A stretch of 64,000 nucleotides of DNA. It comes from an uncultured Methanosarcinales archaeon (GTDB taxonomy: Archaea; Nanobdellota; Nanobdellia; Woesearchaeales; JAGVZT01). The position numbers were made by a program, and so were the translations under genes. The notes beneath the pieces are model-generated. The model saw only the letters and a program-made list of their open reading frames with translations. It did no database searches and was not told where the DNA came from. Numbering within the stretch: the stretch's first letter is position 1; each line of letters opens with the position of its first letter. The stretch spans positions 8,054 to 72,053 of the forward strand of contig CAYQPU010000003.1 in assembly GCA_964419615.1 (NCBI GenBank), in the 5' to 3' direction. This document shows, piece by piece, positions 7,469 through 64,000 of the stretch.

Positions 7469-9455
7469 CAAATAAATCACCAGATCGTTTGAGTTTTTCA
7501 ATAACCTCTTCTACTTCACTATCTTCAACACCTTTTTCTGCAGCTTGTCTTAAAATATCTTCAATTGGAATTGTTTTAATTCCTTTGTTTTCAATTTCAG
7601 ATATGATCTCTCTTATTAATACAATTTTGCTTCTTTGGGTTGCAGCAACCCCAGTTGCAATTCTATCAATATCTATCTTACCTGTTTCTTTATCAACTCC
7701 CACTTGAGTTAAACAGTAATGAAGTAAAGATATAGCTCTTTTAGCATCTGCTTTGGTTACTTTTCCAGCCAATCTAACTCTTGCACTAGCTTCAGATAAT
7801 CTAACTAAAGCTTCAAGTTGTCTTGGACTAATAGGGATGGATTTGATTAAATCTTCTTCAGAAGAGCCTTTATTTCTTAAATCAACATAATATGTCTTAA
7901 TCTCTTTTATGGCTGCATTTGTCAAAACAGGTTTAACTCCTTGTTTTGCATATGCAATATATTTTTTTATTAAATCAGTTTCAATTTCAGGTTCAACTGT
8001 TTCTAAATTTTTGTGGATTTCTAAAATAAATGATGCCATCTTGTCATCTTTTTTTTCATCAGGCATATCTTTTATTGGAAATATTAAGTCAAATCTGTTA
8101 ATAAGAGTTGGAGGTAATTCAATTTGCTTTGCTAACATCTCATAAGGATCAAATCTACCAAATTTAGGGTTAGCTGCTGCTAGTACTGTGGTTTTTGCAA
8201 GTAATGTAGCTTGAATATTGGCTTTAGATACAGTCACAGTTTGTTGCTCTAAAGCTTCATGCATTGCGCTCCTATCTTCAGAACTCATTTTATCTAATTC
8301 ATCAATACAACAGATTCCTTTGTTTGCTAGAACAAGAGCACCTGCCTCTAGAGCATACCCTTTCATAAATTCATCTTTAACAACACTTGCTGTTAAACCA
8401 ACACCAGTTGCACCTTTACCAGAAACATACATACCTTTTGGAGCTATTACTTGTATTCTTTTTAAAAGCTGAGATTTACCAGCTCCTGGATCTCCAATAA
8501 GTAACACATGAATGTCTCCTCTTGTTACAACCCCATCATTTCTCTTTTTTTGAACTCCAGCAAAAAGCTGTAAAATTAATGCTTCTTTTACTCTATCATG
8601 ACCATAAATTGAAGGTGCTATTGACTGAAGGAATTTATCATATATTTTTGGATCTTGAGAAAGTTCTTGTATCTTTTTTTCTTCTTTCTTTGAAATTTTG
8701 ATTTCAGTAAAATCTTCTTCCAAGGCTTTTACATGGTTTGAATCTATTACCAGATCATATCTTGTTGAGGTACCACCTGTTCTTAGAACAATTGGAACTT
8801 CTCGAATTATTCCTGTAACTAGAATTTTTGATCCAGGATTGGTTTTCTTTTCAGAGATAGGACTTACAAGATCTTGCTTAAGAAATATGCTTATTCTTTT
8901 TGGTTGCTCACTGCCTTCCAGATTTTCAGGTGCTTCTTCTAGTACTATTCTTTGGGCATCAACTAATTCTTTACTAATAACTCTGAATTTGCCTTTTCTT
9001 CCACAACCACATCTTGATGGTTCCTTAAACTTGGTATCTACCTGCAAAATGTTGATAATATTCCCACAAGAAGGACATTCAAATTGACTAGAAATCACTT
9101 GGGGCCGGACATCTGATTTTTGTCTTACTAATCCGTCAACTAAGACAAATATTCCTAAATGCTTTGCTCTCACGTCCCTAATTCTTACTCTCTGAGATTC
9201 AGGGATATTTGAAAATCTGACTTTGAATCTTTCTGTTTCTTTAATATCAAAATTTTCTACAGATAACTCAGCTGCTTTAATTACTTCTTCTGGTTGTTCT
9301 AAAAGTTCTTCAGCTAAGCTAGGATCAAACTTTAAAAGTTCTTTAAAATCAACAATTAAAAAACTCTTGTCAGACTGAACATTTTGGAGAATTTGGGTTT
9401 TATAATTAATGTCAAGAAACTCATCAAATCTCTTAATCTGTTCTGCAGCCTCCAT
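7437..9455 (-). CDS. mcm: replicative helicase MCM
   Basis: C4 Zn finger, GDPGAGKSQ Walker A, IDELDKM, RFDL arginine finger, ISPRQLE; no intein. Confidence 0.97.
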   Translation of the reverse strand: MEAAEQIKRFDEFLDINYKTQILQNVQSDKSFLIVDFKELLKFDPSLAEELLEQPEEVIKAAELSVENFDIKETERFKVRFSNIPESQRVRIRDVRAKHLGIFVLVDGLVRQKSDVRPQVISSQFECPSCGNIINILQVDTKFKEPSRCGCGRKGKFRVISKELVDAQRIVLEEAPENLEGSEQPKRISIFLKQDLVSPISEKKTNPGSKILVTGIIREVPIVLRTGGTSTRYDLVIDSNHVKALEEDFTEIKISKKEEKKIQELSQDPKIYDKFLQSIAPSIYGHDRVKEALILQLFAGVQKKRNDGVVTRGDIHVLLIGDPGAGKSQLLKRIQVIAPKGMYVSGKGATGVGLTASVVKDEFMKGYALEAGALVLANKGICCIDELDKMSSEDRSAMHEALEQQTVTVSKANIQATLLAKTTVLAAANPKFGRFDPYEMLAKQIELPPTLINRFDLIFPIKDMPDEKKDDKMASFILEIHKNLETVEPEIETDLIKKYIAYAKQGVKPVLTNAAIKEIKTYYVDLRNKGSSEEDLIKSIPISPRQLEALVRLSEASARVRLAGKVTKADAKRAISLLHYCLTQVGVDKETGKIDIDRIATGVAATQRSKIVLIREIISEIENKGIKTIPIEDILRQAAEKGVEDSEVEEVIEKLKRSGDLFEPRRGYIQKI

Positions 9456-9459
9456 ACTG

Positions 9460-10035
9460 TTACATTACTTTTTTTAGGTTTAAGATTAATTTATCAAGTG
9501 CTGCATGTACTTCAGCTTCACTTTTTGTACCAGTACATACAACTTTTCCATTAGTAAATAACAGGAATGTTGCCTTAGCATCAATTAACTTGAAAACCAA
9601 TCCTGGAAATTGTTCAGGTTCATATTCTGTATTCTTAAGCTTCATTGCTAAAGTGTTCAAATTCAGATCCATTCCAACTGAACCAGATGCAACAATGTTT
9701 TGAATCTTGATTTCAGGTTCAATGTCAATATTTACATTGATCTTTTTAAGATTAATAATTATCTTTTTTATTGATTCCTCTACTTTATCCATAGATTTTG
9801 CGCCAGTACACACAACTTTTCCGGAACTAAAGATTAATGCAGATGTTTTTGGTTCTCTGATTCTAATAACTAATCCTGGAAATTGTTCTGGATTATACTC
9901 TGTGTTTGGAAGAGTTGCGGCCATCTTTTCAAGAGGAATGTCTTGTTCTAAAGAGGTGCTAACTACAATATTTACAACTCTAATATCTCGATTTTTACCT
10001 TCTTTCCATGTATCTACTTTCTTTTTGTTAGTCAT
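9460..10035 (-). CDS. tbp: TATA-box binding protein
   Basis: two direct repeats of NIVxS..EYxPEQFPGLV..LxFxxGKVVCTG. Confidence 0.97.
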   Translation of the reverse strand: MTNKKKVDTWKEGKNRDIRVVNIVVSTSLEQDIPLEKMAATLPNTEYNPEQFPGLVIRIREPKTSALIFSSGKVVCTGAKSMDKVEESIKKIIINLKKINVNIDIEPEIKIQNIVASGSVGMDLNLNTLAMKLKNTEYEPEQFPGLVFKLIDAKATFLLFTNGKVVCTGTKSEAEVHAALDKLILNLKKVM

Positions 10036-10152
10036 TTTTTATACCCCCGTAATTTGGCAAATGCCAACTTTTCATTTATAAATGAAAATTCATTTATAAA
10101 TACTTTTATTTTTAAATGATATTTAAACAAAATATATGTTAAAAAAGGGATG

Positions 10153-10257
10153 CCCCCCTGGTTTCCAATAGAATTATGGGCTTTAGATACTGTTAAACCC
10201 TTGTTTTTTAATATATGATCATTTAATACATAGTTGACCCCTCAATTTCCAGTGGAG
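10153..10257 (-). other. candidate replication origin with two ORB-like elements and adjacent AT-rich tract
   Basis: minus strand TTCTATTGGAAACCAGGGGGG (10173-10153) and CTCCACTGGAAATTGAGGGG (10257-10238) match the archaeal ORB pattern TCCAxTGGAAA+G-string; AT-rich 10065-10146. Confidence 0.55.
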
Positions 10258-10337
10258 AGTTTAATATATTTTTTACTAAATTTTAATATATATTGTAAAC
10301 CAAAATTATAAATATAAGTTAACAATAGTTAATTTTC

Positions 10338-11519
10338 ATGAAAGTTTATCTTGATAATGGAGCTACAACTAAGGTTGCTCCTGAAGTATTAAAGGAGATG
10401 ATCCCTTATTTTTCAGAAAAGTATGGTAATTCTTCTTCTTTGCATAAGTTTGGGAAAGAAGCAAAAAAAGCAATTGAGCAAGCCAGAGCTACAATAGCTA
10501 AACAGATTAATGCTGATCCCGCTGAAATTATTTTCACATCTGGAGGCACAGAATCTGATAATCTTGCTATAAAAGGAATTGCCTATGCTAATAAGAACAA
10601 AGGTAATCATATTATAACCACTAAATTTGAGCATCCTGCAATTGAAAAGACTTGTGAAATTCTTTTAAAACAAGGATTTGAAGTTACTTTTTTAAACGTG
10701 TCTAAACAAGGTTTTGTCCGTGTTGAGGATGTTAAAGCTGCAATAACAGACAAAACCATATTAGTTAGTATTATGCATGCTAACAACGAGATTGGAACAA
10801 TTCAACCTATTGAAGAAATCGGAAAAATTTGTAAAGATAAAGGAATTTATTTTCACACAGATGCAGTACAAAGTTTTACAAAAATCCCAATTGATGTTAA
10901 AAAAATGAATATAGACTTGGCATCATTTTCTTCTCATAAGATCCACGGTCCAAAAGGAGTTGGTGCTTTATATTTGAAAAGTGGAACTAAGATAGAACCT
11001 CAATCCATAGGAGGATCACATGAATTTGGAAAAAGAGCTGGAACTGAGAATATTTCAGGAATTGTTGGATTTGCAAAAGCTTCGATTATTATTTCACAAG
11101 AAGATATTAATAATATGAAAAGATTAAGAAATAAATTAATAGATTCTCTTTTGGAAATACCACATGTTCAGTTAAATGGTTCTAAGGATAATAGGCTTTG
11201 TAATAATGCAAATTTAAGATTTAATTTAATTGAGGGTGAAGCCATGCTTATTCACTTGGATATGCTAGGAATAGCTGTTTCGACTGGTTCAGCCTGTTCT
11301 GCTAAAGATCTTAAACCAAGTCATGTGTTATTAGCAATTGGTTTATCTCATGATGTAGCACACGGATCTATTAGATTTACATTAAGTAAATTTACAACTG
11401 ATGAAGAAATTGATTATACAATTTCAAAAGTAAAAGAAGTTGTAGACAAGCTTAGGAAGATGAGTCCTTTAAAACCAGGATATAATGCAGATGATTTTCC
11501 AAAACATGATCCCCATTAA
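10338..11519 (+). CDS. iscS: cysteine desulfurase IscS/NifS
   Basis: YLDNGATT, HTDAVQ, SSHKIHGPKG PLP lysine, STGSACS catalytic Cys. Confidence 0.95.
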   Translation: MKVYLDNGATTKVAPEVLKEMIPYFSEKYGNSSSLHKFGKEAKKAIEQARATIAKQINADPAEIIFTSGGTESDNLAIKGIAYANKNKGNHIITTKFEHPAIEKTCEILLKQGFEVTFLNVSKQGFVRVEDVKAAITDKTILVSIMHANNEIGTIQPIEEIGKICKDKGIYFHTDAVQSFTKIPIDVKKMNIDLASFSSHKIHGPKGVGALYLKSGTKIEPQSIGGSHEFGKRAGTENISGIVGFAKASIIISQEDINNMKRLRNKLIDSLLEIPHVQLNGSKDNRLCNNANLRFNLIEGEAMLIHLDMLGIAVSTGSACSAKDLKPSHVLLAIGLSHDVAHGSIRFTLSKFTTDEEIDYTISKVKEVVDKLRKMSPLKPGYNADDFPKHDPH

Positions 11520-55995: not shown

Positions 55996-58263
55996 TTAAC
56001 CATAATAAGATGGTTTTTCTTCTTTCATTTCTTTGCCACGTGCTGATCTAAATGCTGTTCCAAACTCTTCATAAGCCTTTTGAATATCTTTTGTTATTGA
56101 TGGTTTAACTTTAACCATTGCCTCTTTAAAATGTTTTGCTTGTACATGCTTAGTTTTAATATCTTCTCTTAAAGCAAGAATTGCAGCTTCTCTGCAAATT
56201 GCTTCAATATCTGCCCCAGCATAACCTTGAGTTTTTTCAGCTAAATCACTCACTTTTACACCTTTAAGTGGCATTCCTTTTGTATGAACTTTAAATATTT
56301 CCTCTCTAGCTTTTTTGTCAGGAGTTGGTGTAAGGATTAACCTGTCAAATCTTCCAGGTCGAAGTAAAGCAGTATCAATAATATCTGGTCTATTGGTTGC
56401 AGCAATAACAACAACATCATTAAGATCTACCAGACCATCCATTTCAGTTAATATTTGATTAACAACTCTTTCTGTCACAGGATTATCTGATCTTGTACCT
56501 CTTCTTGGAACTAATGAATCCAATTCATCAAAGAAAATAATTGTTGGTGCAGTTTGTCTTGCTTTTTCAAAAACTTTTCTAACAGCTTTTTCACTCTCTC
56601 CAACCCACTTGCTTAATAATTCAGGACCTTTAACTAAAATAAAATTCGCTTCTGATTCAGTAGCAACAGCCTTAGCCAACAATGTTTTACCAGTTCCAGG
56701 TGCACCATATAACAAAATACCTTTTGGAGGTTTAACTCCAAGCCTTTTGAATGCTTGTGGGTTTTTTAATGGCCATTCCACAGCTTCTATTAACTCTTGC
56801 TGCACATTTTTTAATCCGCCAACGTCAGTCCACTTGACATTAGGAACCTCAACTAATACCTCTCTCATAGCACTTGGTCTAACAACTTTTAATGCTTCCT
56901 TGAAATCTTTATGTTTAACTCTTAATTTTTCAAGTACTTCTGTTGGAATTGGTTCTTCTTCCTTAAACTGTAATTTAGGTAGTAATCTTCTTAAAACAAT
57001 CATGGCAGCTTCCTTGGCGAGTGATGCAAGATCAGCACCAACAAAACCATGAGTTACTTTTGCTAATTGTTTTAAATTTACATCTTCTGCAAGCGGCATA
57101 CCTCTTGTGTGAATCTTTAAAATGTTCAATCTGCCTTCTTTTCCAGGAACCCCAATCTCAAGTTCTCGATCAAACCTACCTGGTCTTCTTAGGGCAGAAT
57201 CTAATAAATTTGGAACATTTGTTGCAGCAATAACAATAACTTTTCCTCTGGATTTTAAACCATCCATCAAGGCTAGCATCTGAGCTACAACTCTTCTTTC
57301 AACTTCTCCTTGAACTTCCTCTCTTTTCGCTGCAATAGCATCAATTTCATCAATAAAAATAATTGAAGGTGCATTTTTTTCAGCTTCTTCAAACTTTTTT
57401 CTCAAATTCTGTTCGCTTTGGCCATAATATTTACTCATTATTTCCGGGCCATTAATTAGAATAAAATGTGAATTTGTTTCAGAGGCAACAGCTTTTGCTA
57501 ATAAAGTCTTACCTGTTCCAGGTGGTCCTTGAAGTAAAACACCTTTTGGAGGTTCAATACCTAATCTTTCAAAAATTTCAGGATGCTTTAAAGGAAGTTC
57601 AACCATTTCCCTTATTTTAATAATCTCTTCTTCTAGTCCTCCAATATCTTCATATGTGGCTTCAAGTACACTATCCTCTGCAACCTCAATAGCTTCAGGA
57701 TTAAAAACAACTTCTGTTAGATCTGAAATTATTACAGCTTTTTTTGGCTGTGTATCTACTACTCTAAATTTTAAATCACCAAATCCAAATCCTAACAACT
57801 CATTTGGAATATTAAACACATCTTCAAACATAGAACTTTCAGATAATGTATTACGCCTGCTCTTGGATCCACCTAAACTTACAATATCTCCCTTAATTAC
57901 AGCTCTTCCCATCAGCCCTCTTTTAAATATCTCTGATGAAGCTCTAACTAAAATTCCTTTTCGGTCTGGGGCGATTATAACTTTTTTAGCTTCTTTTACC
58001 TCAGCTTTGTTAACTTGGACAATCTCACCAATACCTGCTTTTGCGTTTCTTCTGATGATTCCATCCATTCTAATAATATCAAGACCAATATCACCCGGAT
58101 AAGCTCGGTCAACAATCGCAACAGTCATCCGCTCTCCAGAAATCTCAACAATATCGCCTGGCCTAACACCAATATCATGCATATTAGTAGTATCAATTCT
58201 AACAATTCCCTTGTTTACATCATCCTGAATTGCTTCTGCAACTTTTAATTTTTTACTTGTCAT
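55996..58263 (-). CDS. cdc48: CDC48/VAT AAA ATPase
   Basis: N-domain plus two AAA modules ([16 protein letters not shown]); C-terminal YYG HbYX-type motif. Confidence 0.96.
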
Positions 58264-59410: not shown

Positions 59411-61204
59411 TTAGTCTCTTAACATGAATTTTTCTAAGTGTTTTTTAGCCTTTATTCTTTCTTTTTGATGATTTGTTAGGAATTTGTTCAGCTTGTCAAT
59501 TAACATTTGTTTAAGCTCACCAGATAGTAAATCCCCGTTTTTATAACTGTGATAAACTTCTTCTAATTTTTTGTCGCTTTTTTCAAACACAGAAAGCCAT
59601 TGATAAGAATAATCCACATCAGGATTACCTCCTAATTCTCTATGCTTCTTGAGGGTATCTTGTCCACCTGAGAAAGCATACTTCATAATCTTTTTCTTAA
59701 CTTCTTGGGGAGTATCTGTTGTAAATATTGCCGTATGTTTTTGTGAGGCAGACATTTTTTCTTTAGAAGTTCCAAGCCCTGGTAAAAACCTGTTGTGAAT
59801 TTGTGCTGGTTTATAGTATCCCAATTTTGGAGCAACCTCTCTTGCAATACCTCTCCAATATGCATCTTGATCTATTGCTGCGGGAATAAGAACTGGAATA
59901 TTCTTCTTTTTTAGAACGCTTGGCAGGAAACAAGGAGCAGCCTGCATACTTGTATAAAAAATAATCCCAATATTTGATTGGTTAGTAAAACCAAAAACAC
60001 CTTTTGCTTGGGAATAAGTGATTCTCTTGGCAATTTTTAAGGCAATTTTATACAATGTTTTGGAATACTCTGTATTGATAATTATTTTTGTTTTTTTGGG
60101 TTTGAATCCTAATGCGATTAAGTCTAAAGCATTATCATATCCATAAGCTGTTGTTTGCTCCAATGTAAGATCTTTAACAAGGAATTTTTCATCATCAACT
60201 ATCTGGAAGTAAAATTCAGATCCAAATTTATCTTGAATCCATTTTGTGAACATCCATGGAACCAAATGTCCTATGTGGGTTGTTCCAGAAGGACCTCTAC
60301 CAGTGTACAAAGCAAATTTATTTCCTTTTTCATATTCATTTAGTATGAAATCCATATCTCTGTGACTAAAGAAAATCTTTCTTGTCAAAAAGTGATGTAA
60401 CTCACCTACATTTGATTCAATTCGTTTAAGTAGTTTATTTGTAATCGGTTTTGTTCCAAATTCAACAATTAATCGATTATAATCAATATCTCCTTTAACT
60501 TCCCAAGGTGTTACAACAAATTCTTGGCCCAAGGATTCTTCAATTTCCTTAACTTTGAAAGTCTCAATTGTTGATTTTTTTTGAGATATTCCTTTCAGGT
60601 ATTTTACAAGTGTATTTATCATTGATTTGCTTTCAGAGTCTGTGACTTTTCCAAAAAACCAAAAAAAGTAAACTGTGTTCTTTGTCTTATCAGTTATCTT
60701 TGTGGCATTATCCTGGCCATACAACAGACTAGTAATACAAATGTTGTTTTGTTTTAGAATAATATCATTAGGAACCAAATCTTGCTTCTTATTTGCAATG
60801 TTAGTAAAAGGCTCATCTCCATCAGTAATATCAAAAATGAGTGTATCTTTGATTGTGTCAAGATCATGTCCAGATACTAAACAATAATGCTTCATCTCTG
60901 TTATAAACAAAATATCTTTTAAAACAGAGTCAGTAGGAATCTCTTTACCTCCTTTAATGGAGTCTAATTGATATTGAATTGGATTAGTCTTTCCAAAATT
61001 TTTAAAGAACACATTATCTTTCCTGACAATTGGTATTTTAGAGGAATCTTTGATTTTGCATATCTTTTTTTCAATTAATTTTTTCTCTTTTTCTAATGAA
61101 ACATCCTTTTGTTTATTTGAAAGGTTCTGTGCTGTCACAGTAAAAAACTTTACATTTGGATACTTTGACAGTAACCTTTTAGTTAGTTTAACTTGTGTTT
61201 TCAT
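59411..61204 (-). CDS. trpS: tryptophanyl-tRNA synthetase fused to N-terminal B3/4-like domain
   Basis: YTGRGPSG..HIGH, DDEK, QAAP, AIDQD, KMSAS; about 225-aa N-extension with HDLDTI..GDE.F..DII..D.AT.IT..TKN pattern. Confidence 0.9.
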   Translation of the reverse strand: MKTQVKLTKRLLSKYPNVKFFTVTAQNLSNKQKDVSLEKEKKLIEKKICKIKDSSKIPIVRKDNVFFKNFGKTNPIQYQLDSIKGGKEIPTDSVLKDILFITEMKHYCLVSGHDLDTIKDTLIFDITDGDEPFTNIANKKQDLVPNDIILKQNNICITSLLYGQDNATKITDKTKNTVYFFWFFGKVTDSESKSMINTLVKYLKGISQKKSTIETFKVKEIEESLGQEFVVTPWEVKGDIDYNRLIVEFGTKPITNKLLKRIESNVGELHHFLTRKIFFSHRDMDFILNEYEKGNKFALYTGRGPSGTTHIGHLVPWMFTKWIQDKFGSEFYFQIVDDEKFLVKDLTLEQTTAYGYDNALDLIALGFKPKKTKIIINTEYSKTLYKIALKIAKRITYSQAKGVFGFTNQSNIGIIFYTSMQAAPCFLPSVLKKKNIPVLIPAAIDQDAYWRGIAREVAPKLGYYKPAQIHNRFLPGLGTSKEKMSASQKHTAIFTTDTPQEVKKKIMKYAFSGGQDTLKKHRELGGNPDVDYSYQWLSVFEKSDKKLEEVYHSYKNGDLLSGELKQMLIDKLNKFLTNHQKERIKAKKHLEKFMLRD

Positions 61205-61250
61205 CTTATCTTTCGGTGTTTAGGATAATATTTAAAAGTTTTGGAAATAT

Positions 61251-62153
61251 TCATTGCTCATCCATAGCATTTCTATATGGTTTAATTATATTGTCAATCA
61301 CTAATCTTCGAGCTTTTCTTCTTAGTTTTTTTCCTTTTAGTCTCCTAATATAATCCTGAGTAAAGTAATCTTTCCCAAGTATTTGCCCTGCAAGGGAAGC
61401 TACAGTTAGCAAGTACCTTGATGCGGTTTCAGGTCCCATCTGGGATCTGTTCTTAGAAATATACATTACATCATCAAAAAATATTCTCTGACCATTTGTT
61501 GTTCCCCTATGGGTTGGAACGTAATGAACCACTTTTTCTGGAACTCTTGATCCAACTGCATAAGCATCAATAAGATACCCAAAACTTAGATCCATTCCTA
61601 GTCTCTTCATAATGAGATCATATTGTTTCTCTTTGTCGGGACCAATCTTTGTTTCAATTCCAAGAGTTCTTTGAAGATACTCAACACAAGCGATCTCATG
61701 TAGTGTGTATAAATATGCTGACTGATTTTCTTGATACATTTCAGGAATTGTATCTCTAACTAGATCTTCAAGACCAAGGGAATGTATGTCTGACAATATC
61801 TCTTTAAATACTCCTTTGTACTCATCTGTATTCAGAAACTGAGAACAGGACAAAATATTTGGCTCAAACCCAAAAACTTTTTGTAGTACCTGTAAAGTTT
61901 CCAATATTGCATTATGTCCTTTTGTAACCTGTTCATTTGGTACCTAGTTAAACATGTGGAATACATCAGTTATTAGAATATGGTACTCTTTTGTACCTAT
62001 TCCAGCAAAAAAGGTTGTGATAATATCAATTGGTACACCTTGGTGCCCAAAACCTAAACCAGTAAGAACTATCTTTCCTTCTAGATCTATTCCAACTGGA
62101 TTTGTTTCTTTGATAAGACTGCCAAAGACAACCACCTTTTGAAGTATTTCCAA
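61251..62153 (-). pseudogene. class Ic aaRS-fold/CDPS-like protein B, interrupted by one in-frame TAG (61946-61944)
   Basis: track ORFs 61944-62153 and 61251-61904 share a frame; YTLHE, KIGPDKE..YD; no HIGH or KMSKS. Confidence 0.6.
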
Positions 62154-62161
62154 AACAATCT

Positions 62162-63325
62162 CTAATCATTTTTCTTTTCTCCTTCTGATTCATATCTAGT
62201 AAATGAAGTTAATTTTTTATTCAATATGAATCTATCAATTCCATTCTTAGATGCTAAAACTTTTTTTTGGTGGATATCTAGTAATTCAATTATGAAATCT
62301 GTTGTAATCTTTTTAATCTCAGATGCATTCATCTCTCCAGATTTGTATTTACCATGAATATTATTTACAAATTCAGTATTTGGGTGATGGTAATTTAACA
62401 GTTGAAAAACACTACAAATCTCTGGAATCGCACCATACTTTTTGTGATCTTCAAGTTTGTCTAAACATCCTGTAAATGCTTGATTTATCTTTTCCTGTAC
62501 TTGTTTTGGTGTGTCAGACAGGAAAATCGCTGTCTCTGGTTTTGAGCCAGACATCTTCTTCTCTGGATCTCTCAAACCTTGCAAAAAATTAACTGTAATT
62601 TCTGATGGAGGAATCATACCAAATCTTTTAGCAATTTTTCTGGCAAGCAATATGTATGGATGCTGGTCAGGTCCAACTGGGATGAGTGTGTGTTTTGGAC
62701 CACCAGATTCATTTAATTGAGGAAGTAAAATCTGAGCAACTTGTACAGAACCTCTGTAGGTCATTTGAGAGACATTCTTTAAAGCTCTGTCTCCAAATAA
62801 TTGCTGAACAGTCTTTACTGAAATTTCTTTGCCAAGATGCATAGCAAAATTATACAATTCAGGAAAATCAGAGTCCACAAATATTTTTGTCTTTTCTGGA
62901 TCAAATCCAAAGGCAATTATGTTTGGGATAATCTCTTCATAAGCCATTCTTCTGCTCTCTTTTAAACTCTCACTTTTTCCATCAGCATAAGACTCATCAT
63001 TAGTCACAGGAATTATTATGTTTGCACCTATTTTCTGAAGAGAAATCAACAAGTCAAATAGTACTTTGTGACCCAGGTGAAGCTGTGAAGATGAATTTAG
63101 GCCAGAAACCACAGTGAACTCTTCATTATTCGCAATATACTTAGCAATCTTTTCAAAATCAAGATGAGCAATAACAATATCTCTATCAAATTGAATACTT
63201 TTCCCTTCAAAATATTTTTTTATTCTCGAAAATGATTCCAAATTACTTGAATCAAGCTTTTCTGTAAGATCTTTTTCAAGCTTTCTTTGAATTTTCAACT
63301 TCTTTTCATACTCTGGACAAGTCAT
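62162..63325 (-). CDS. second, divergent TrpRS-like synthetase
   Basis: SGLNSSSQLHLGH, NDES, QVAQILLPQL..GGP, PVGPDQHPY, KMSGS. Confidence 0.85.
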   Translation of the reverse strand: MTCPEYEKKLKIQRKLEKDLTEKLDSSNLESFSRIKKYFEGKSIQFDRDIVIAHLDFEKIAKYIANNEEFTVVSGLNSSSQLHLGHKVLFDLLISLQKIGANIIIPVTNDESYADGKSESLKESRRMAYEEIIPNIIAFGFDPEKTKIFVDSDFPELYNFAMHLGKEISVKTVQQLFGDRALKNVSQMTYRGSVQVAQILLPQLNESGGPKHTLIPVGPDQHPYILLARKIAKRFGMIPPSEITVNFLQGLRDPEKKMSGSKPETAIFLSDTPKQVQEKINQAFTGCLDKLEDHKKYGAIPEICSVFQLLNYHHPNTEFVNNIHGKYKSGEMNASEIKKITTDFIIELLDIHQKKVLASKNGIDRFILNKKLTSFTRYESEGEKKND

Positions 63326-63999
63326 TTTAACCTCTGGATGATATCTTCTTGCACTTGATGTGGAATCATCTTAATGTTCTGTTTGTCTAATTCAAATTCT
63401 TTGAATTCACTAAAATTATCCTCTCTGCATCTCTTTGCTAAATCAAGAATAATCTGTAAATCAAGCAGAGGGTTTGGGAGTGAATCATCAGAAGGGATAA
63501 ATGTTTTTTCAATTAATTTCTTTGAATCTTCTAATCTTGTTTTGTCCAAAATAATTCTATATCCCTGTAGTCTATTACTGCCAGCCTTGTAAGGTGTAAC
63601 TCCAAACTCATCTATCTGGGGATTTTCTAAAAAGAAGTCAAAATTTTTCCCCAATGGATAAGTTGGTTTAACATAAATGCCAATTAGTTTATTCTTGTTA
63701 AGCTTGTTTGCAATTTCTTGAGCAATAATATCATAATTAATCTCTCTGGGTGGTCCAATTTTAACATCATACCCCAAAATTAATGCAACTTCTTCTCTAG
63801 TATACAGATAATCTTTTTCCTCTTCCTCCTTAATCTTACTAGTGATCACAGTTGAACTCAGCATTTCTTTTATATCCTTACTTTCCAAGATGCATTGAGT
63901 TACTTTTTTAAAATCAGTTTTAAACTGCTCAGTTTCAAATAATTCACTCATCAAAATTATATTTGATTTGAGATTAAAAACAAGTTTTATCTTTTTTAT
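63322..63999 (-). CDS. class Ic aaRS-fold/CDPS-like protein A (5'-partial, open to window edge)
   Basis: YTREE, KIGPPRE..YD, YPLG, VTPY, GYRIILD align with protein B; frame open upstream as IKKIKLVFNLKSNII. Confidence 0.65.
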   Translation of the reverse strand: MKKIKLVFNLKSNIILMSELFETEQFKTDFKKVTQCILESKDIKEMLSSTVITSKIKEEEEKDYLYTREEVALILGYDVKIGPPREINYDIIAQEIANKLNKNKLIGIYVKPTYPLGKNFDFFLENPQIDEFGVTPYKAGSNRLQGYRIILDKTRLEDSKKLIEKTFIPSDDSLPNPLLDLQIILDLAKRCREDNFSEFKEFELDKQNIKMIPHQVQEDIIQRLK

Positions 64000-64000
64000 T

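Follow-up and report, generated by a model that had tools for sequence, protein, structure and literature searches.

What does a second tryptophanyl-tRNA synthetase (TrpRS) do in an archaeon when its gene, itself divergent, lies between the genes for two synthetase-like proteins? The question is raised by one end of a 64,000-nucleotide (nt) stretch of DNA, hereafter the window, from contig CAYQPU010000003.1 (C3 below) of assembly GCA_964419615.1, an uncultured archaeon placed in the order Woesearchaeales. Four co-oriented minus-strand genes fill positions 59411–64000: protein A, a TrpRS that we call TrpRS2, protein B, and a TrpRS of 597 amino acids (aa) with a B3/4-like N-terminal domain. We consider it very probable that A is the ORF1 protein and TrpRS2 the TrpRS-A enzyme of a published cassette, tRNATrp(A73)–ORF1–TrpRS-A, of which this locus is a member. 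Our preferred explanation, to which we assign a probability of about 0.5, is that the cassette is a back-up tryptophanylation module for tryptophan (Trp) scarcity, in which proteins with the fold of tyrosyl-tRNA synthetase (TyrRS) would be subunits that do not adenylate and have an accessory or sensor role; the mechanism in it is what we infer.

Relation to the tRNATrp(A73)–ORF1–TrpRS-A cassette

The operon tRNATrp(A73)–ORF1–TrpRS-A was described in Microgenomates and other Candidate Phyla Radiation (CPR) members and in a few DPANN archaea by Mukai, Reynolds, Crnkovic and Soll (2017, Life 7:8; PMC5370408). That study, which has the archaeal and bacterial identities of tRNATrp among its themes, listed 12 instances, found the cassette free of Trp residues and the canonical TrpRS adjacent to it or elsewhere, noted a third paralog ('TrpRS-A-like') in archaea, and left the function of the cassette unsolved; a review from 2022 added none (PMC9437257). 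We equate A with ORF1 and TrpRS2 with TrpRS-A because the operon described in 2017 is the same as the one found here. The two have in common the gene pair, its order and overlapping frames, an A73 tRNATrp upstream, a coexisting canonical TrpRS that is often adjacent, and the absence of Trp. What the present locus adds is an interrupted B paralog, a canonical TrpRS fused to a B3/4-like domain and an A1-like enzyme in an archaeon.

The layout of the genes had been described beforehand by a reader who saw only the DNA and its open reading frames (ORFs). The co-orientation of four genes, with the upstream ones abutting or overlapping, agrees with the ORF coordinates, and the frames of A and TrpRS2 overlap by 4 nt (end of A at 63322, start of TrpRS2 at 63325). 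The gene order, the paralogy of A and B and the two TrpRS assignments of that original prediction also stood, but the continuity of B did not, as an in-frame TAG (61944–61946) had been overlooked and B had been read as one open frame.

At least 95 homologs of A, with lengths of 310–345 aa, were collected, mostly from CPR/Patescibacteria and a few from DPANN archaea, and 32 loci in species-representative genomes were surveyed. A TrpRS2-type gene follows A with overlapping or abutting frames in 28 of the 32 loci, and in two more the genes are fused (L042, 778 aa; L045, 731 aa); the remaining loci are one cut by a contig end and one, from Nanohaloarchaea, with a different order. All 30 determinable loci have the two genes overlapping, abutting or fused. 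The co-occurrence of A homologs with the TrpRS paralog, on which the original prediction depended, is therefore nearly universal. ARAGORN finds a tRNATrp(CCA) within ~150 nt upstream of A at 26 of the 32 loci, always with G1–C72 and A73, and the second tRNATrp of two loci (L016 and L035) has A1–U72 and G73. The former combination is the archaeal and eukaryal identity of tRNATrp and the latter the bacterial one.

ARAGORN detects no tRNA in the window itself, the tRNAs of the cassette being located beyond the end of the contig. The end of the window is also the end of C3, so the truncation of gene A reflects the assembly and is not biological; the rest of the gene sits on contig C5 of the same genome. 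A contig from the Joint Genome Institute with an identical locus (L015) joins the end of C5 to the end of C3 via an 8-bp overlap, and the joined order is tRNATrp-1, tRNATrp-2 (with an apparent intron), an ORF of 188 aa, A, TrpRS-A, B (with its TAG) and the B3/4-type TrpRS. The full-length A taken from it (P0030; L015:4877-5875) is 100% identical to the part in the window. Assemblies made independently stop within gene A at almost the same A-rich spot (the AAAAAGATAAAA region), which is where the window and C3 end (64000), C5 ends and L013 starts, and only L015 reads through this break.

The tRNATrp that heads the operon has A73 and lies at C5:56835-56906 (L015:4003-4074). Two bases after it begins the tRNATrp-2 candidate, also with a CCA anticodon (L015:4077-4268; C5:56909-57100), whose T-loop appears to be interrupted by ~116 nt; its exons give an acceptor stem GGGGTTG/CAACCTC (7 bp, one G-U) with A73, and a run of T follows. 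It scores only 23.9 bits with Rfam and appears to be an intron-bearing tRNATrp-like gene. Its acceptor stem resembles those of the tRNATrp genes that precede members of the B family in L002 and L005. The whole 1.48-Mb assembly, which is 99% complete, yields 10 tRNAs with ARAGORN or 11 with Rfam RF00005, and several of the matches span 103–164 nt, which hints at introns of great length or unusual position that standard finders miss. Between the tRNATrp genes and A, the Trp-free ORF of 188 aa (L015:4295-4861, on contig C5) has a good AGGAGG ribosome-binding site and no match to a Pfam family.

Two tryptophanyl-tRNA synthetases in one genome

A census of TrpRS and TyrRS in the genome yields two TrpRS-like genes and one TyrRS-like gene, and no more. 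The two TrpRS, both in the window, share 30% identity. The 597-aa protein matches the archaeal TrpRS family NF008927 with 497 bits (cut-off 478) over residues 226–596, and TrpRS2 scores above the cut-off of the NCBIfam TrpRS family TIGR00233 (219 bits). In a phylogenetic tree the 597-aa enzyme joins the canonical DPANN TrpRS with support 100, and TrpRS2 falls inside the clade of operon-linked CPR TrpRS-A (SH-aLRT 98) as sister to Dojkabacteria (94), the TrpRS-A clade being defined here by loci with the published operon structure rather than by the accession numbers of the 2017 paper. TrpRS-A is an extra copy, as TyrRS, TrpRS and TrpRS-A occur together in five genomes and likewise in the one studied here.

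TrpRS2 retains both HIGH (as LHLGH) and KMSKS (as KMSGS), which are invariant in the TrpRS-A family together with GxDQ, and TrpRS-A matches a solved archaeal TrpRS at E 1e-70. The kept motifs and this match indicate that TrpRS-A is probably an active synthetase. TrpRS2 does not have the four-Cys motif of the A2 type. The type free of this motif, A1, was thought to be confined to bacteria (PMC5370408); judged by its sequence, an A1-like TrpRS-A does occur in an archaeon, an occurrence that the 2017 study did not see.

Tryptophan avoidance and auxotrophy

The three window proteins A, TrpRS2 and B contain no Trp, and the same composition prevails across their relatives. Trp is absent from 86 of 95 members of the A family, 26 of 27 of the B family and 22 of 25 TrpRS-A, from all ten racemases encoded next to B, and from all seven CPR TrpRS fused to editing domains, including one of 924 aa. 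As background, 38 of the 500 ORFs of at least 300 aa in the genome are free of Trp, and the genome-wide Trp frequency is 1.0%. Proteins that are made under a shortage of Trp-tRNATrp are expected to avoid Trp.

None of chorismate synthase, chorismate mutase (CM_2) and TrpA was found above cut-off in the 99% complete genome. With these genes of the aromatic pathway missing, the organism must import Trp. It is the combination of Trp-free cassette proteins and a host that cannot make aromatic amino acids that leads us to a reading in terms of scarcity and rescue.

Rescue could also be needed for a different reason. The cassette might be a resistance module, in which a second, orthogonal pair of tRNATrp and TrpRS together with a helper protein rescues translation from an inhibitor or toxin of hosts or competitors. 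The cassette is always an extra copy, the pair would be orthogonal in bacteria (A73 versus G73), its Trp-free proteins could still be made while Trp-tRNATrp is depleted, and resistant second copies of TrpRS are an established theme (PMC9437257). In the present archaeon, however, both enzymes are of archaeal type and would share A73 tRNAs; moreover, the proposal leaves ORF1 without a role and the partners of the B family unexplained, and we regard it as improbable.

Fold and motifs of proteins A and B

The paralogy of A and B is evident from BLASTP (E 4e-13) and from HHalign of the two family profiles (97.9%, E 4.8e-13), which align over 259 columns from the first motif through the C-terminus. 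Neither A nor B, nor a read-through form of B, matches a Pfam family at E up to 1 (PF00579 included for A and B), and A and B have no NCBIfam match. The two family profiles matched no synthetase, and no chain of any kind, among the PDB sequences (hmmsearch), and HHalign between the A family and TrpRS-A gives a probability of 0.5%.

Structural models were compared with known structures. The AlphaFold model of B, built from a 24-sequence alignment (pLDDT 88), matches TyrRS in Foldseek at E 2e-10, and VIA-align superimposes it on archaeal/eukaryal TyrRS with Z 23.8 and a root-mean-square deviation (rmsd) of 2.5 Å over 267 of 294 residues. The model of A (P0030, 332 aa; pLDDT 93) aligns with TyrRS over 282 of 332 residues (Z 23.4, rmsd 3.2 Å). 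The alignments span residues 1–294 of B and 1–332 of A, C-terminal helical domain included, and all 50 structural matches listed are TyrRS. The models thus indicate that A and B have the full TyrRS fold with its C-terminal anticodon-binding-type domain, in agreement with the class Ic synthetase fold that had been predicted. Compared with archaeal and eukaryal TyrRS (M. jannaschii; A. fulgidus, 2cyb; P. falciparum, 3vgj), the whole-chain fold is alike (Z 23–24, 267–282 residues), whereas identity is only 9–15% and PF00579, HIGH, KMSKS and any sequence match to a PDB chain are missing.

The lack of HIGH and KMSKS, noted earlier from single sequences, is confirmed by the family consensus sequences. 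The position of the first motif reads ...G-L-T-I-D-S... in the alignment of family A and ...G-V-P-I-D-I... in that of family B, and that of the mobile loop reads TPYKAGS in A and PTHRG.TNGQR in B; these placements follow the order along the fold and not a residue-level superposition. Family A has strongly conserved polar residues, for example in the blocks YGETYD, TIDSLKYY, KIGPPRE..YD and TPYKAGS.

The original prediction went further and took A and B to be transferases resembling cyclodipeptide synthases (CDPSs) in a small-molecule or tRNA-dependent modification pathway. With CDPSs (AlbC, YvmC, Rv2275) the two proteins do share a class Ic-derived Rossmann domain without ATP motifs, and B has the Y-x-x-x-E block (YPLNE), to which Y-x-x-E-E in A is similar. 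The differences are that CDPSs consist of a single domain, that A and B match no CDPS family, and that the candidate nucleophile position is not conserved between A and B: in the family alignment, used here in place of a CDPS superposition, the G-x-(S) position, which in CDPSs has the catalytic serine at the start of the P-loop equivalent, holds an invariant Thr in A and Gly in B. To our knowledge, CDPSs have no C-terminal anticodon-binding-type domain. We rejected A and B as CDPSs because they keep this domain, match no CDPS profile in Pfam, and have TyrRS as all 50 listed structural matches, with no CDPS chain among them. The genomic contexts differ as well, natural-product tailoring for CDPSs and translation and amino-acid metabolism for A and B. 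The neighbours that recur across ~45 loci are tRNATrp, TrpRS, racemase, aminotransferase and chorismate mutase, whereas genes for tailoring, for transport or for other biosynthesis do not; the natural-product pathway found no support, and neither did the view that the locus is unexpected in a reduced DPANN archaeon. The cassette at its core is typical of CPR and DPANN organisms.

A broader version of the same idea would make A and the intact B-type proteins enzymes that use Trp-tRNATrp or tryptophanyl adenylate (Trp-AMP) supplied by TrpRS-A and its dedicated tRNATrp, as transferases or modifiers only broadly like CDPSs. This would account for a synthetase fold in which the ATP motifs are replaced by new invariant residues, for the Tyr–Glu blocks of both families, for the dedicated tRNATrp gene in the operon, for the close coupling or fusion to an active synthetase, and for the editing-type domains on the canonical TrpRS (see below). 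We nevertheless consider it rather unlikely. The retained C-terminal domain, the missing Pfam match, the Thr or Gly at the would-be nucleophile and the lack of recurrent tailoring or export genes count here too, and the partners of B (racemase, aminotransferase and chorismate mutase) are unrelated to each other, which is hard to reconcile with one aminoacyl-tRNA chemistry. In some bacteria, furthermore, the operon is linked to a trp repressor (PMC5370408).

Predicted complex of A and TrpRS-A

The 2017 study found no Rossmann fold in ORF1 and suggested that ORF1 might bind TrpRS-A or form a heterodimer (pseudo-dimer) with it (PMC5370408). Our model of the complex of A and TrpRS-A reaches an ipSAE of 0.64 compared to 0.00 for the best control. 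Among solved complexes 58 of 80 attain this mark, and among mismatched pairs 2 of 110 do; these counts hold only roughly here, as the run used alignments that we made ourselves. Three runs share 100% of the contacts, with partner pLDDT of at least 86. The confident contacts join residues 34–40 and 57–66 of TrpRS-A, which belong to its conserved N-terminal extension, with residues 226–237 and 277–281 of A, the first of these lying in a segment that is missing from B. The model and the gene fusions together point to a binding of A to TrpRS-A.

The predicted contact is not the class Ic (connective peptide 1, CP1) dimer interface, and for this reason we did not adopt the picture of a pseudo-homodimer. 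The canonical pseudo-dimer was rejected, as the model does not place A on the CP1 interface of TrpRS-A, and 'accessory subunit' was kept as the description. An analogy is the double-length, pseudo-dimeric TyrRS of trypanosomatids (3p0j, 5usf), in which a class Ic module that is active works with one that is not, as would be the case in the ORF1::TrpRS-A fusions in L042 and L045. In the cassette, by contrast, the inactive module would be TyrRS-like and the active one TrpRS-like, the predicted contact is between the N-terminal extension of TrpRS-A and the ORF1 insert instead of CP1, and the inactive module has strongly conserved pocket residues of its own.

These features also bear on the possibility that ORF1-like proteins are allosteric sensors, comparable to HisZ in HisZ–HisG or to the HisRS-like domain in GCN2. 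With the former tyrosine pocket or the tRNA-binding surface they would detect an aromatic amino acid or tRNATrp that is uncharged, and would adjust whichever enzyme is attached to them. One fold is found with four kinds of partner (TrpRS-A, racemase, HisC-like aminotransferase and chorismate mutase), the gene overlaps are typical of subunits, pocket residues are conserved where the ATP motifs are missing, and the predicted interface is on a regulatory-looking N-terminal extension of TrpRS-A and not on the dimer interface. HisZ, the regulatory subunit of ATP phosphoribosyltransferase, is likewise a paralog of a synthetase (HisRS), lacks the aminoacylation motifs and associates with metabolic enzymes in the area of its cognate amino acid; it differs in being a class II protein with one fixed partner, while the several partner kinds of ORF1-like proteins are known from gene linkage, fusions and a model. 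In an organism without aromatic biosynthesis, however, TrpRS-A is left as the only relevant partner, and as a separate explanation we find the sensor role unlikely, although it overlaps with the accessory-subunit part of the explanation that we prefer.

The B family and the interrupted gene

A search of 1.84 billion representatives at E ≤ 1e-30 yields 73 clusters of the B family. Beyond the population represented by the window, 13 loci were compared, and in 11 of them a racemase gene (Asp/Glu family, above the TIGR00035 cut-off) overlaps B on its downstream side. A canonical TrpRS follows the B–racemase pair in several loci (L003/4, L007/8, L009, L049), and a tRNATrp precedes B in three (L002, L005, L051). 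The racemase is replaced by a HisC-like aminotransferase in L002. In one genome of the order, a CYTH-domain protein (L054:938-1489) and not a racemase is found downstream of B.

Six further clusters (P0170, P0182, P0183, P0190, P0193 and P0194; 478–494 aa) combine the B domain with a C-terminal type II chorismate mutase. One such fusion (9001–10467) is part of a run of five overlapping genes on a 1.56-Mb archaeal contig (L067), in the order TrpRS-A-like, ORF1-like, B::chorismate mutase, ORF1 and TrpRS-A. This operon and the locus in the window indicate that, in two distant lineages at least, A-type and B-type proteins share a functional neighbourhood. Upstream of the L067 operon lies a class I/II aminotransferase gene with divergent transcription. 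A scan of metagenomes for B::chorismate mutase loci gave 219 pattern matches, none of which was confirmed.

The TAG divides the B gene of the window into 69 and 217 codons. Intact homologs are ~295 aa long and have K, N, G, R or W at this position. The same TAG is present in five other assemblies (L011–L015), and in contigs from three sequencing runs with zero differences. In the window no racemase gene separates B from TrpRS, and the genome has three Asp_Glu_race genes at other places. Since the gene carries a nonsense codon and its usual racemase partner has been lost from the locus, B is probably a decaying copy, either a pseudogene or a split gene. A 2203-bp contig from the European Nucleotide Archive encodes a 210-aa protein (P0006) that shares 97% identity with B in its C-terminal half and is unrelated in its N-terminal half, which suggests that the B gene of a close relative has been rearranged. 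B is present in 7 of 201 genomes of the order, none of them in the same genus or family, and in 10 of 401 genomes of a phylum sample, all in the same order and all as plain B genes. An apparent TGA in the B homolog of G092 may fall at the edge of the gene, and we did not take this homolog for another pseudogene.

Could B still function, by read-through or recoding of the TAG or as two reassembling fragments? No assembly seen is without the TAG, both fragments are still open and Trp-free, and the break falls between secondary-structure elements, after a strand (50–55) and a helix (58–62). TAG recoding, including as pyrrolysine, was rejected because TAG ends 117 of 652 long ORFs (18%) and also the adjacent TrpRS2 gene. 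No tRNA with a CUA anticodon is among the only 10 tRNAs that ARAGORN detects. The usual racemase partner is gone, genomes of the same genus and family are without B, and the 5' half of the gene has been replaced in the close relative with P0006; a functional B at this locus therefore seems very doubtful to us.

Editing-type domains on canonical TrpRS

The original prediction took the 597-aa protein for a TrpRS with an editing domain. Residues 1–228 resemble Pfam B3_4 (PF03483) with 23.8 bits and E 3.9e-5, they resemble stand-alone B3/4 clusters (222–227 aa) with an Atlas feature score of 0.85, and BLASTP aligns them at E 7e-6 with the B3_4 domain (97 bits) fused to a CPR TrpRS in L016. These three concordant lines uphold the resemblance, but the Pfam score is below the gathering score of 29.3, and we call the extension B3/4-like on weak grounds. 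The extension has the size of an entire stand-alone B3/4 protein. A search for other B3/4::TrpRS fusions of this type recovered only the query itself among proteins of 328–1045 aa.

Other domains of this kind recur in organisms with the cassette. An N-terminal YbaK-type tRNA_edit domain is present on the bacterial-type TrpRS adjacent to the cassette in six CPR loci (L020, L021, L023, L029, L038, L041). In Dojkabacteria (L016:2097-4871) the 924-aa, Trp-free protein mentioned above consists of a B3_4 domain, two YbaK-type tRNA_edit stretches and a bacterial TrpRS; a tRNATrp of bacterial identity (G73) precedes it, and the ORF1–TrpRS-A cassette lies 1 kb downstream. A plain TrpRS without an editing domain is encoded at L026 and L044. 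It is presumably these YbaK and B3_4 domains that a figure legend in the 2017 paper mentions, without identification, as 'small proteins' fused to TrpRS. Three different combinations of editing-type domains have thus been appended to TrpRS in cassette-bearing organisms. The Plasmodium TrpRS, with an appended N-terminal AlaX-like domain, is comparable in the position of the domain and differs in its kind, which is B3/4 in this archaeon, YbaK-type in the six CPR loci and B3/4 with two YbaK-type stretches in L016. We know of no requirement for editing by TrpRS.

We regard these domains as the strongest hint that the cassette is more than a spare enzyme. They lead us to mention a speculative scenario in which TrpRS-A and ORF1 load tRNATrp(A73) with something other than free L-Trp, such as D-Trp, a modified Trp or a precursor that is finished on the tRNA, or process the aminoacyl group. 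If so, the YbaK and B3/4 domains on canonical TrpRS would clear cross-charged product, and B proteins linked to racemase, aminotransferase or chorismate mutase would feed or sense the same aromatic pool. Indirect pathways that are completed on the tRNA exist for Asn, Gln, Cys and Sec. We consider the scenario a long shot.

A proposed back-up module for tryptophan scarcity

In the explanation that we prefer, TrpRS-A, with all its adenylation motifs retained, would be the catalytic enzyme. A, in which HIGH and KMSKS are missing, is for this reason presumably unable to adenylate, and a new set of conserved polar residues stands in their place. A would dock by its own insert (226–237, 277–281) onto the N-terminal extension of TrpRS-A (34–66) and act as an accessory subunit that senses a ligand or handles tRNA, not as a second active site or a CP1 pseudo-dimer. 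The module would sustain the synthesis of Trp-tRNATrp when Trp or Trp-tRNATrp is scarce. B would represent a sister family that is coupled to a Trp-free racemase or fused to chorismate mutase, and that in the present genome is partnerless and decaying. The folds, the loss of motifs, the linkage and fusion of genes, the tRNA identity, the avoidance of Trp and the nonsense codon are observations; the binding of A, a function in scarcity and a role for A and B outside catalysis are what we infer.

Several observations weigh against this explanation. The Trp-free composition would be just as fitting for a rescue when TrpRS is inhibited. The strongly conserved polar residues of A resemble a ligand site or an active site more than they do a passive scaffold, and A may therefore catalyse a reaction on Trp-AMP or Trp-tRNATrp instead. 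The score of the complex is the model's own confidence, obtained from alignments of our making. A simple back-up enzyme leaves the dedicated tRNATrp gene and the editing-type domains on TrpRS unaccounted for, and the 10–11 detectable tRNAs do not allow each tRNATrp to be assigned to its enzyme.

The function of the cassette has been unsolved for the nine years since its description. The window itself is modest news: one more case of a cassette already known, in which one of the paralogs is broken. Absent from the 2017 paper (PMC5370408) are the B family, its pairing with racemase and its fusion to chorismate mutase, the fusion of ORF1 to TrpRS-A, and an identity for the TrpRS-fused 'small proteins'. 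These fusions and pairings, the predicted complex, the complete TyrRS fold of ORF1, the avoidance of Trp across all groups and the recurrence of YbaK and B3/4 domains on TrpRS are found neither there nor elsewhere in the literature that we searched. These findings turn an 'unknown ORF' into testable hypotheses on how auxotrophic ultra-small cells protect the decoding of the rarest amino acid. The cassette is one of few natural cases in which two tRNA/synthetase pairs for one amino acid coexist, and it is of relevance to the mining of natural orthogonal pairs for genetic-code expansion.

Coordinates and neighbouring gene

Table 1. Features of the locus, in positions of the window
Feature	Position	Strand	Description
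Protein A (ORF1)	63322..64000	-	C-terminal 225 codons in the window; whole gene 332 aa
TrpRS2 (TrpRS-A, A1-like)	62162..63325	-	387 aa; PF00579 132 bits; TIGR00233 219 bits; ends in TAG
Protein B	61251..62135 (or 62153)	-	~294 codons; probable GTG start at 62135; ORF1-like paralog, predicted TyrRS fold
In-frame TAG within B	61944..61946	-	ORF reading of the window
597-aa TrpRS, whole gene	59411..61204	-	
N-terminal B3/4-like domain of the 597-aa TrpRS	60521..61204	-	residues 1-228
Canonical archaeal TrpRS catalytic and anticodon-binding part	59411..60520	-	residues 229-597; 5 Trp

Directly downstream of the locus, on the same strand (55996–58263), the window encodes a two-domain AAA+ ATPase of the Cdc48/VCP type with 755 aa, which looks ordinary.

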